This document shows, in pieces, positions 30,907 through 55,863 of a DNA stretch of 64,000 bases. The stretch comes from an uncultured delta proteobacterium (GTDB lineage: Bacteria; Myxococcota_A; Polyangia; Polyangiales; Polyangiaceae): positions 576,001-640,000 of the forward strand of contig CAVOKF010000004.1 in assembly GCA_963696385.1 (NCBI GenBank), in the 5' to 3' direction. A program made the position numbers and the translations under genes. The notes beneath the pieces were generated by a model. The model was given only the letters and a program-made list of their open reading frames with translations, ran no database searches and was not told the DNA's origin. The first letter of the stretch is position 1. Every line of letters begins with the position of its first letter.

Positions 30907-30941
30907 TAAGTACACCGCCCCAGGAGCAAAGGGGTCAGCCG
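30907..30941 (+). repeat. Truncated copy (C) of the structured intergenic repeat
   Basis: TAAGTACACCGCCCCAGGAGCAAAGGGGTCAGCCG aligns with the first ~35 nt of copies A (reverse complement) and B. Confidence 0.8.
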
Positions 30942-30987
30942 AGAATCCGCCCAACCGCACGCCCCGGCGCGCCAACGCGCGGGAGAG

Positions 30988-34508: not shown

Positions 34509-35360
34509 ATGGGCAGTCGGAGCGTCGTGCCCGTTTTCCACGCGAGTCGCTCGGGGGCGGCTCGCATGGCTGGACGCGCCACCTCTTTGGCCCGCTCTCA
34601 GGTCGCCGCAGCCATCCGAATTCCGGAGCGCGCGGGCGGCCAGCTAAGGCTGGTCTTTCCGCCTGGGTCGCCTCGGCTCTTCGTGCATGAGGGCGCTCGC
34701 CAATCCCTAGAGCGCAAACTTCGTGCCGCCTTCGCGGGCTCGGTGATCCTGTCCATCACGGACAACCGACATTCCATCATCACTCACCGCGTCCAACGCG
34801 GAACGCTCTTCGTTCGAGCACACCACATGTTTCTCGACGCTCCGGCATCGGTCGTCGATGCGCTGGTCCGTTATGTGACCCGCGGCGATCGCGAGGCAAG
34901 CGCGGCTCTCGGCGACTTCATCGACGCCAACGGCTTCAGGCTTGCTCGACGCAAGCGGAACGCGCCGCTCATAGCGCGGGGCAAACATCATGACCTGTTG
35001 GTCGTCTACGGGGACGTAAACGAGCGATACTTTGGTGGAAGTGTCCACGCTTTGATTACCTGGGGCAAGAAGTCCACGACCAAGGCACCGAGACGCAGGA
35101 CCATCAAGCTCGGGAGCTACAGTGCCTTTGATCGATTGATCCGCGTCCACCCTGCACTCGATCGAACGTGGGTTCCACGGTATTTCGTGGCATACATCGT
35201 TTACCACGAGATGCTGCATCACGTGATTCCAGGTAGCCGCGGGCTCGGCCGCGTGAACCTGCACCCCCCCGAATTTAAAGAGCGCGAGAAGCAATTTCGA
35301 TACTACGAGCGCGCTCTCGAATGGGAGAGGCGTCACGTCGGTCGACTGCTCCGAGCGTGA
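34509..35360 (+). CDS. SprT-like zinc metalloprotease
   Basis: IKLGSY, IRVHPALD, YHEMLH, HPPEF. Start uncertain. Confidence 0.75.
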   Translation: MGSRSVVPVFHASRSGAARMAGRATSLARSQVAAAIRIPERAGGQLRLVFPPGSPRLFVHEGARQSLERKLRAAFAGSVILSITDNRHSIITHRVQRGTLFVRAHHMFLDAPASVVDALVRYVTRGDREASAALGDFIDANGFRLARRKRNAPLIARGKHHDLLVVYGDVNERYFGGSVHALITWGKKSTTKAPRRRTIKLGSYSAFDRLIRVHPALDRTWVPRYFVAYIVYHEMLHHVIPGSRGLGRVNLHPPEFKEREKQFRYYERALEWERRHVGRLLRA

Positions 35361-35364
35361 GCGT

Positions 35365-35535
35365 CTTAGTACGGCGCCCATTGAATGGTACCCAGCTTCG
35401 CTGGGCACGCCTGCTTCGCAGGCGGGCGCTGTACTAAGATGATTTCCTTGGGGCTTCGCCCCAAACCCCCAATCGCCTGCCGGCGATTGAAGTACACCGC
35501 ACGGCTGATCCCTTTGTTCTGGAGCGGTGTACTTA
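35365..35535 (-). repeat. Structured intergenic repeat, full copy A (REPIN/BIME- or MITE-like)
   Basis: Nested inverted repeats; its reverse complement aligns end-to-end with 55691-55863. Confidence 0.9.
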
Positions 35536-35567: not shown

Positions 35568-38258
35568 ATGATCGAGTCGTCCCCGGGTGTTTCAGCCCAC
35601 GATAGCGTGGGTATCGCGTCTCGCCGCCCGCTCGAGTCAGCGCGAAGCGCGAGGCTCGCCGCTGTCCTGGCGGCCTCGTTGCTTGGTGGGTGTGCTTTCC
35701 AGAGGTCCCATCCAACGGCGCCGGCCGTCGTGGCAGCGGTCGCGCCGCCGATGAGCGCTTCGTCGGCCGCTCGTTGGGCGGTGTCGAAGACGGAGCCTGC
35801 GCGCTCGCATGCGGTCGCAGTGCTGGAGCACAAAACTCTCGGGCCCTTTGTCGCTCGTGGAAGTTCCACGGGGCTGGCTGCTTGGATCGCGCCTGCCGAA
35901 AAGGGAGGCGGCGAGGAGCTCGTCGTCATTCCGCTGGCGGAAGACGGGGCGCCGATGCACGACGCGCGAGGGATCGCGCGCGTGCCTCAGGAGGCGACGT
36001 CGCTCGTCATTCAGCCCGCAGGCGGGAAGCTCGGCGGATGGTTCGTGGCCTGGAGCGCTCTGCTGGATCGCGGCGAATCGCTTACTGTCGTTGGCTTGAC
36101 GCCCGAGGGCACCGTCCGAGGGGCGGCGGCCGACGTGCAGCGCACCAGCGATCACATCCGGTGGTTTCAAATCGTGCCGACCCAAGACGGCGGCTTATGC
36201 GTTTGGGCCGAGGAGACCACGGCGGGCGACGCCAACGTGCTGGCGGTGGGCATGGACGTCGATGCAAAAGTCCACGGGCAACCGGTGCGGGTGGCCCGCG
36301 GCGTGGACCGGTGGCAGACGGTCCCGGCCGGTCGAGGAGCCGCGCTGGCACTCGTGGCGGTTGGCCCCGTCGACGATCGAATGCGTGCCGGCGGGAATTT
36401 GACATGGCAGCGCCTCGATGCGGACGGTCATCCAGACGGAGCCAGTGTGCTTGTGACCGGGCGGCCCACCGTCAGCGGAGACGTCGATGTCGTTCCCATC
36501 CGTGACGGTTGGCTGATGGCCTGGACCGACCGGACCGGCGAAGATCCACAGGTTATGCTCGCCGCGGTCGACGCTCGAGGGCATGTGCGCGGACCGGCGC
36601 CTGCGATGAACGCGGTAGGCGGATCCACCGTCGTAGACCTTGCCGCGGGACCGAAAGGTGTCGCTCTAGCTTGGGCAGAGCCGCACAGCCGTGTGCGTCC
36701 GACGAGTGTGCTTCATCTTGCGCTGGTCTCTACCGAATTGGAGCTCTCGGCTTTGCCGCTTACGTCGTTCGACATCGCGTCCGGAAGCCCACCCGAGCTG
36801 GTGGCCACCGATGTCGGATTCGCCCTTTTGGCGCTCGCCCGCTGCCGCTCCGCCGACCCGAATGCGACGTGCGCCGGATCGGTGGTGCCCACATTTACTC
36901 GTCTCGATGATCGGCTCCGGGCCGTGCAAGTCGAGCCGATGTTCACGGGCGACGAGCACGCTCCGTCATCGATTGGTTGGGGACTGCGCTGCGGCGTCGG
37001 CGGGCGATGTTTTGCTCTGGCCGCGTCGAGCGTTGCGCCAACGCCGATCTATACGGTGGACTTCCCCGTCCGCGCATCCGCCTTCTCTGCGCCGCTTACG
37101 GAGGAGGGGCCGGTTGGCGCGCCGCGCGTCACCGGGGTGGAAACGATCGCGTCGGGACAGCCGTACGAGGATCTCGCGGCCGCCCATGTGGGCGCGGGGA
37201 CGCTGGTGGCAACGCTCGCGGGCGCGCTCGACTTGCCGCGCGAACGGCGCCGGTCTCGCGGCGCTCAGATCGTACTTCAATCGGTCGATCGCACGGGGCG
37301 GCCGCTCGGCCCGGAGAGGCCCCTGACGTCGCGTGCGCTGTTGACTGGGGGTATAGCCCTCGCCGCCGGCGCGCAACCAGGCGACGGCGCCGCGATCGTG
37401 TGGGTCGGCCGAGACGAGGGGGATCCGCATGTGCACGTCGCTCGGACCGATCCGCTCGGGCATTCGATGCAGCAAGCGCGGCTTACAGACGTCGCTGGCG
37501 AGGCAAGCAGCGTTGCGGTGGCATGGGCCGGCAATGGTTGGATTGTCGCATGGGTCGACGGTCGCAGCGGCAACGGCGAGGTCTACGCCGCCAAGGTCGA
37601 TCGCAACCTCAGGCGCGTGGGTCACGAGCAGCGTCTCACGAAGGCGCCCGGCGATGCGGGGGACGTCGCCCTATCCATACGAGACGGTATCGCGTGGGTC
37701 GCCTGGAGCGATCCGCGTGAGAGTCCGCGGGAAGGAGTAGCCGACATTTTTGTGACGACGCTTCATGCCGAAGACGCCACGCGCGCCGGCGATGAGGTTC
37801 GTGTTCTCGCAACGGCCTCTCACTCCCGATCGCCGAGTCTCGCAGCGGTGCCAGGCGGAGGGGCCATACTCGCGTGGATCGAAGATGCACCCTCCGGTCT
37901 CGACGCGCCCGGAGCTGCGATGGTCGCGCGGCTCGATGCGTCGGCTCACGTCGTCGGCGTGCCTGCTGCGTTGCCATTTTCCAAAGACGAGCGGCCGACC
38001 AATGTCGTGCTGGACTCGCAGTCCGGCGATGTCCGGGCCGTGATTGCCCACGGCGGGCGCGATGGGCTAACCCTCGCGGCACTGCGGTTGGGACAGGACG
38101 CGACGCCGGTGACGACTTCGACGCTGCTCGACTTGGACGCATCCTCGTCATTCGACGTGTCCTTGGCCCTCACGACGGACGGACTGGTGTTCGATGACGT
38201 TGGATCCGCCCCTGGCGATCGTCGGGTGCGCCGGGCCGCCATCGACTGGAAGCCTTAG
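35568..38258 (+). CDS. Large lipoprotein with beta-propeller-like repeats
   Basis: Lipobox LLGGC; repeated GW.VAW.D blades. Start uncertain; the longer ORF from 35385 runs through the repeat. Confidence 0.75.
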   Translation: MIESSPGVSAHDSVGIASRRPLESARSARLAAVLAASLLGGCAFQRSHPTAPAVVAAVAPPMSASSAARWAVSKTEPARSHAVAVLEHKTLGPFVARGSSTGLAAWIAPAEKGGGEELVVIPLAEDGAPMHDARGIARVPQEATSLVIQPAGGKLGGWFVAWSALLDRGESLTVVGLTPEGTVRGAAADVQRTSDHIRWFQIVPTQDGGLCVWAEETTAGDANVLAVGMDVDAKVHGQPVRVARGVDRWQTVPAGRGAALALVAVGPVDDRMRAGGNLTWQRLDADGHPDGASVLVTGRPTVSGDVDVVPIRDGWLMAWTDRTGEDPQVMLAAVDARGHVRGPAPAMNAVGGSTVVDLAAGPKGVALAWAEPHSRVRPTSVLHLALVSTELELSALPLTSFDIASGSPPELVATDVGFALLALARCRSADPNATCAGSVVPTFTRLDDRLRAVQVEPMFTGDEHAPSSIGWGLRCGVGGRCFALAASSVAPTPIYTVDFPVRASAFSAPLTEEGPVGAPRVTGVETIASGQPYEDLAAAHVGAGTLVATLAGALDLPRERRRSRGAQIVLQSVDRTGRPLGPERPLTSRALLTGGIALAAGAQPGDGAAIVWVGRDEGDPHVHVARTDPLGHSMQQARLTDVAGEASSVAVAWAGNGWIVAWVDGRSGNGEVYAAKVDRNLRRVGHEQRLTKAPGDAGDVALSIRDGIAWVAWSDPRESPREGVADIFVTTLHAEDATRAGDEVRVLATASHSRSPSLAAVPGGGAILAWIEDAPSGLDAPGAAMVARLDASAHVVGVPAALPFSKDERPTNVVLDSQSGDVRAVIAHGGRDGLTLAALRLGQDATPVTTSTLLDLDASSSFDVSLALTTDGLVFDDVGSAPGDRRVRRAAIDWKP

Positions 38259-55690: not shown

Positions 55691-55863
55691 TAAGTACACC
55701 GCCTCAGAACAAAGGGCTCAGCTGGGCGGTGTGCTTCAATCGCCGGGAGGCGATTGGGAGTTTGGAGCGAAGCCCCAACGAAATCACCCTAGTACGGCGC
55801 CAGCCTGCAACGCAAGGCGTACCCCGCGCAGCTCGGTACCGCTGAGCGGGGCGCTGTACTAGG
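55691..55863 (+). repeat. Structured intergenic repeat, full copy B
   Basis: Aligns with the reverse complement of 35365-35535; same hairpin architecture. Confidence 0.9.

Follow-up and report, generated by a model that had tools for sequence, protein, structure and literature searches.

The window analysed here, a stretch of 64,000 nucleotides, contains a highly structured intergenic repeat of about 170 bp at 35365..35535, which raises the question of what kind of element it is and which enzyme moved it. The initial annotation proposed a non-autonomous mobile palindromic family, either REP/REPIN/BIME-like or a MITE family, with a repeated ncRNA as the alternative. Element boundaries, empty sites and copy number bear out a mobile palindromic family, and MITE is the correct one of these names. 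We conclude, with a probability of roughly 0.88, that this is a non-coding MITE, present between genes in about 70 copies, that it duplicated TWA from C-TWA-G, and that it was likely mobilised in trans by a DDE transposase of an IS630 lineage with the same ~29-bp terminal repeats.

Copy A lies on the minus strand and extends over 164 bp from GTAC to GTAC (35369..35532). Its left target duplication (TAA in element orientation) is located at 35533..35535 and its right one at 35366..35368, 5 nt past the stop of a 283-aa ORF ending at 35360. Copy B (166 bp, 55694..55859, plus strand) is flanked by a 580-aa ORF (end 55671) and a polyphosphate kinase gene (start 55884); its left duplication is TAA (55691..55693) and its right one TAG (55860..55862), one change from TAA. 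The partial recurrence reported at 30907 is real and represents copy C (30907..30942, plus strand), a TAA followed by a 33-bp left-end stub (30910-30942), 3 nt past the stop of a metallophosphoesterase gene. Taken with its duplications, copy A (35366-35535, minus) can be aligned with copy B (55691-55862) over the whole length, as had been claimed, with 13 differences in the first 110 columns and 29 over 172 columns. The repeat as first delimited therefore exists, but its true ends are GTAC...GTAC, the outer TAA/TTA being target duplications. Neither of the ORFs beside copy A (window 34509-35360 and 35568-38258) gave a match in Pfam; an HExxH motif is present in the first.

Folding of copy A recovered all six helices of the architecture proposed earlier (z = -6.85 as RNA and -7.60 as DNA), and none of 200 shuffles folded equally well. 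Read along the minus strand, copy A begins with a bipartite left terminal inverted repeat of 29 bp (35504..35532), which matches the IS630 lineage ends and pairs with an inner inverted copy of the outer left end (35492..35500) to form stem 1. Then follow hairpin 2 (35471..35488) and hairpin 3 with its GAA loop (35448..35464), both belonging to a shared central scaffold, and an inner copy of the target core (CTTAG) followed by one of the outer right end (GTAC; together 35424..35438), which is the partner of the right end in stem 2. Two short hairpins lie within stem 2 (35391..35423). The right terminal inverted repeat (35369..35396) matches the IS630 ends in its outer 12-13 bp and in the distal GGTAC/CCAG part, while its middle part has drifted from them. 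Each end of the element thus pairs with an inner 9-15-bp copy of itself, whereas most other MITEs with the same ends fold end to end instead. Covariation is modest overall: two-sided changes were found in 9 of 54 pairs, a value reached by none of 500 shuffles, but they represent few independent events and stem from one subfamily or from single copies, and the covariation term of RNAalifold is unfavourable (+1.31). In the G024/G003 subfamily the left end has changed at two positions and the inner arm has changed along with it. The CTTAG/CCTAG difference, formerly described as compensatory, opposes an inner base to a target-derived base in one copy only, and the corresponding empty site is CTAAG.

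A profile made from 24 copies and searched against the 6.94-Mb genome (G000, 8 contigs) detected 71 loci at E<0.01 and 80 at E<1, compared to none at E<0.3 and two at E<1 in the reversed-genome control; the expectation of many copies genome-wide was therefore justified. Thirty copies are near full length; others are ~45-bp forms that retain both ends only, and tandem and truncated forms also occur. With three copies in 64 kb, the window has about four times the genome average of ~0.7. The host, a soil myxobacterium, is of Polyangiaceae type, judged by the labels of genomes in which the right half is also present. The copies show 89% median identity to the majority sequence and are mutually 81% identical on average, with only one of 435 pairs above 95%, for which reason the expansion is not fresh. 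All 71 loci lie outside called genes (own codon-based gene caller, 5578 genes), and 33 of them are in spacers between convergent genes, which account for 759 of 4139 spacers (18% expected, p 8e-8); the orientation of the copies is also biased. The earlier placing of all copies 3-19 nt past stop codons needs correction in that genome-wide the stop codon of a called gene overlaps the junction itself at 31 of the 70 loci with a defined end, against 104 of 1050 CTWAG sites and 374 of 6887 CTSAG sites. An insertion into a TAA or TGA stop leaves the gene undamaged, so the placement is likely the outcome of selection against harm. In six RNA runs, only 7-18% of words were present.

Evidence for mobility came from the close relative G003, which is ~94% identical over the window. 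The empty-site comparison suggested by the initial annotation revealed precise single targets at A and B: at copy A, G003 has one TTA where the filled site has two, around GTAC...GTAC, and at copy B its empty site has a single TAA. Twelve of 14 orthologous sites (12 of the 13 aligned; one further site is shared) are without the element in G003. Of these 12, only A and B have exact empty sites. At two more sites a single CTWAG is accompanied by an eroded end in G000, at another the position differs by one base, and the remaining sites have diverged spacers. Across 49 ends on either side, the left flank reads C-T-A-A in 28, 35, 33 and 42 cases and the right flank T-A-A-G in 41, 31, 41 and 42 cases, with nothing conserved further out. 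Variant target triplets are mirrored in three copies (TGA/TGA twice, TCA/TCA once), but the two flanking triplets agree exactly in only 8 of the 28 copies that have both ends. With its target GTAAG, copy A excludes a duplication of 5 bp. The plain reading is a duplication of 3 bp; a 1-bp duplication would account equally for the sequences if the A/T were part of the ends. At the element ends, in element orientation, TAA occurs 45 times and TTA only 7 times, an excess that a symmetric enzyme leaves unexplained; in full-length elements the two are nearly balanced (28 and 18 left flanks). In other samples, DNA contigs break off at 35533-35535; four DNA runs, in which contigs cannot show absence, gave no junction that bypasses copy A, and no paralogous empty site was found within the genome.

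The element ends carry terminal inverted repeats, GTACA(C/G)CGCCCC at both ends, that extend to ~29 bp. The 16-nt right-end pattern occurs in at least 110 places in GTDB. Of the 80 places fetched, 26 are elements of 49-389 bp with both ends (L191, L193, L243 and L190 were left out of this count), and 19 of these are flanked by TAA/TAA, a figure in which the right side is fixed by the search pattern and many cases come from one genome. Longer elements link these ends to a transposase: L190 (1105 bp, TAA/TAA) contains an IS630 transposase between the same ends, L200 and L203 contain pieces of an IS630 transposase beside the end, and L421 is flanked by TTA/TTA. The scores for NF033545 are 148.6 and 172.5 bits (cut-off 100), the DDE_3 cut-off was also passed, and the transposase of this lineage is of the DD35E type. 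A slippery run, T4-6C4-7, is found in 33 of the 36 rows listed for the lineage. Eighty metagenome relatives show 62-73% identity, and 33 of them have both ends and flanks (36 end pairs minus L324, L333 and L357, dropped for miscalled ends); these are 1213-1298 bp long with ~30-bp repeats and lie nearly all at CT(W/S)AG. The same triplet is present on both sides in 16 of the 33 and unlike triplets in 17. The mixed triplets are probably assembly chimeras, and the lean towards short flanks (under 160 bp in 13 of the 17 mixed-triplet elements versus 7 of the 16 same-triplet ones) fits this without proving it; no long-read multi-copy example of a full-length element was found. In every testable respect, therefore, the element is a MITE: it is short, non-coding and multi-copy, has terminal inverted repeats and a target duplication seen by empty sites, and outside this genome there are autonomous IS elements that share its ends and its target (L190, L421 and the 33 metagenome elements).

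The left end of the MITE is identical to that of L311 at 24 of 29 bases, its right ends to that of L308 at 22-23 of 29, and the G024 variant at 26 of 29. Copy A's left end scores 23.2 bits on the end matrix, its inner part reaching 11.5 bits where the 99.9th percentile of 16,591 genomic GTAC sites is 6.4. Less favourably, the right ends of A and B reach only -12.1 and 5.8 bits on the 30-bp matrix. The ends of other IS630 and of ISAzo13 elements receive negative scores from this matrix. The candidate driver lineage is 33-41% identical to the TA-type IS630s of the genus and forms a separate branch with 98/97 support, in a tree whose group was chosen by likeness to L200 and from which the genome's own IS630 row and 10 further candidates of TA or unknown type are absent. 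The flanks of the driver elements are TWA/TSA at CTNAG, and so differ from the TA dinucleotide duplicated by IS630. Searches for a cognate transposase were negative in this genome (best match 41% identical), in 30 genus genomes and in 250 family genomes, for which 10 candidates were scored per genome; the earlier proposal that the transposase is encoded elsewhere agrees with this. The driver was not found in plasmids (E 1e-60), and in 3/12 genomes holding the end motif. The exact left-end pattern occurred in none of 300 family genomes and gave one chance match in a viral gene. The negative outcome in the searched genomes counts against the proposed driver, so that the link to it rests on end sequence and target.

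Other MITEs and transposon remnants were seen around these sequences. Short elements with the same ends (L177-L256, 49-389 bp) in Planctomycetota, Acidobacteriota, Pseudomonadota and Myxococcota MAGs are otherwise unrelated to the element and fold end to end, without the four-arm form. The genome's own 1.2-kb IS630 has only GTAC in common with the element and was rejected as its driver; it has its own TA-type MITE of 94 bp, seen in 26 rows, some of them nested (e.g. G000 C6:48511 and C4:818756). A GTAC pair spanning 2152 bp at C8:10726 is a chance arrangement around another IS, and the 1.5-kb gap between element halves at C6:329434-331127 has no transposase inside. At L001:1934-3630 left and right halves lie 1.5 kb apart, each ending at the inner CTTAG; between them are a broken piece of a sigma-54 ATPase and, judged by eye, a putative addiction-module pair. 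The genome has eight IS110 matches; the mirrored variant triplets argue against a fixed core of the IS110/IS1111 type. A ~100-bp MITE with ISAzo13-type ends and a TWA duplication, with nine BLAST matches in the genome, lies inside the inner CTTAG of an element at L002:1520-1625 (G000 C6:156020). At L034:1350-1900 (G000 C7:49431-50142) a piece of an ISAzo13-type MITE, an IS701 pseudogene fragment and four tandem ~58-bp element pieces occur together.

One rival reading, which follows the REP/REPIN/BIME option of the initial annotation, has a Y1 HUH (RAYT) transposase mobilising the element as a folded single strand of DNA. REP, REPIN and BIME repeats associated with RAYTs are extragenic palindromic repeats with many copies and a convergent-gene bias, and the extragenic position of our element, its enrichment between convergent genes, its tandem and truncated forms, its very stable hairpins with GNA-type loops and its folding as DNA (z -7.6) all resemble them. 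REP elements, however, have a GTAG/GGAG foot before a short palindrome, whereas the arms here start with TAA/TTA and then GTAC, which are transposon ends. PF01797, the Y1/RAYT family, gave no match in this genome or in any of five relatives carrying the element or its sister, although 6 of 14 control genomes were positive. As the ends are IS630 terminal repeats that elsewhere enclose an IS630 gene, and as variant targets are duplicated, single-strand mobilisation is largely refuted and we regard it as hardly credible. A MITE moved by a different DDE enzyme, be it a TA-type IS630 of the L158 kind, ISAzo13 or IS701, is very improbable too. The L158-type outer end differs from that of the element by one base over the first 10, and a frameshifted copy 89% identical to L158 is present at C7:1384609-1385719, but L158-type elements and their MITEs occupy CTAG sites and duplicate TA, and the matrix on which the element left end reaches +23 assigns -23.7 bits to their ends. 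ISAzo13 elements of the genus share the CTWAG target, but their ends start with GG; the sole IS701 remnant of the genome adjoins tandem element pieces, but IS701 ends start with CACTACT in CTAG.

A further alternative concerns not the origin of the element but its retention: it might be kept for a function in host RNA, as terminator, RNase site or determinant of mRNA stability, with mobility being secondary. Such a function has reportedly been shown for ERIC and NEMIS. This reading competes with neutrality only and not with a MITE origin. The excess between convergent genes, the biased orientation and the number of two-sided changes relative to shuffled alignments would be expected from it, but the placement is equally predicted by selection against harm. 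Arguments against it are the unfavourable RNAalifold term, the descent of the two-sided changes from one subfamily or single copies, the decay of the copies and the lack of site conservation among close relatives. We therefore consider a host function unlikely. The plain repeated-ncRNA alternative finds no support, as Rfam gave no match at gathering scores over the whole window and the sites are polymorphic between close relatives.

The unusual part of this IS630-type MITE is its scaffold, in which each end is paired with an inner copy and which is common to sister MITEs with the ends of TA-type IS630s. These sisters (171-185 bp) have the same hairpin order, the ends of TA-duplicating IS630s (identical at 25/26 positions to L158, 18/20 to L159 and 14/20 to L157) and inner arms that match those ends. 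The L158-type sister (~171-175 bp, TA duplication; L423-L446 from G009, G024, G012, G013, G008, G030, G006 and G007) occurs in 14 of 31 genus genomes, one of them the unpublished G010, with at least 26 copies in G008 and decayed copies in G000 (C3:186704, C5:553693 and C7:1214913). Scaffold variants of 173 and 185 bp were found in G006 (L019, L447 and L450, with the L157-like ends) and G035 (L021, with the L159-like ends). A profile of 14 sister copies, all from other genomes, matched 29 element loci on the same strand (best E 1e-6), compared to two matches for its reversed control, and the central linkers of element and sister aligned better than 1000 of 1000 shuffles in all four comparisons. 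Sequence comparison thus shows the core of the element to be homologous with that of the TA-type sisters, and the shared scaffold suggests that drivers changed. The transposases of L158 and L200 are 33% identical and lie on separate branches; because a short core is unlikely to remain this alike over such a protein distance, a driver change would be the likelier history, and it would be facilitated by the outer 10 bp, which are nearly identical between the two ends. The alternative is long co-descent under selection. We lean slightly towards the view that one hairpin scaffold is a MITE chassis for at least three to four Polyangiaceae IS630 lineages, crossing the TA/TWA classes with the inner arms rewritten after each switch, in which case bacterial MITEs would be lineages able to outlive and change their transposases, and that the TWA-duplicating IS630 clade, present in several phyla, is an undescribed subgroup.

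An older MITE passing from one IS630 lineage to another may have given rise to the scaffold. In the proposed course of events, a visiting full-length IS would have supplied the transposase, which would have cut at the GTAC ends and inserted the element by a staggered cut. Insertions into genes would have been purged by selection, leaving survivors at stop codons and between convergent genes, and the match between inner arms and outer ends may have been maintained through hairpin-templated repair or through selection on the fold. The driver would now be gone, or was never assembled, and the copies would be decaying. For the host this is probably of minor importance, a decaying set of insertions at gene ends. 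What looked like a REP-like puzzle becomes a MITE with a named, testable driver, and a wide-ranging IS630 lineage that departs from the TA rule of its family comes into view. Natural pairs of elements with one core and different ends make MITE origin, driver change and hairpin persistence testable.

A literature search, with ISfinder and most subscription papers outside it, yielded nothing on the element, on TNA/TWA-duplicating IS630s or on driver switching by bacterial MITEs. Among known systems, the element differs from REP/REPIN/BIME repeats in having no Y1 gene and in its transposon-type terminal repeats and target duplication. ISAzo13, TP36-Zator and Tc4 are kin of IS630-Tc1-mariner; Zator and Tc4 duplicate TWA or TNA, and ISAzo13 shares the CTWAG target and TWA flanks, but its GG ends are carried by another MITE of the genome, and the driver proposed here belongs to IS630 proper. 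This driver resembles the IS630 family (NF033545, Pfam DDE_3) in passing both cut-offs and in its DD35E motif, length of ~1.2-1.3 kb and terminal repeats, and differs in its CT(W/S)AG target with a 3-bp (or 1-bp) duplication, the usual IS630 duplication being TA according to PMC8533490; an IS630 lineage with a TWA duplication was not found in PMC11544213 under the terms searched. The CIR repeats of Caulobacter and Brucella, as far as the excerpt of PMC2229807 describes them, likewise have two independently folding arms with a linker and are strictly intergenic, but their termini are TA, they contain a GANTC site and no driver is known for them. RUP of Streptococcus pneumoniae with IS630-Spn1, described in the same excerpt (PMC2229807), works in a similar way: it too is a short intergenic MITE of ~100 copies whose connection to an IS630 is based on the likeness of terminal repeats and on the target. 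RUP folds by pairing of its 5' and 3' ends and uses TA, whereas in the present element the duplicated triplet is TWA, within CTWAG, and each end finds its pairing partner in an inner copy.
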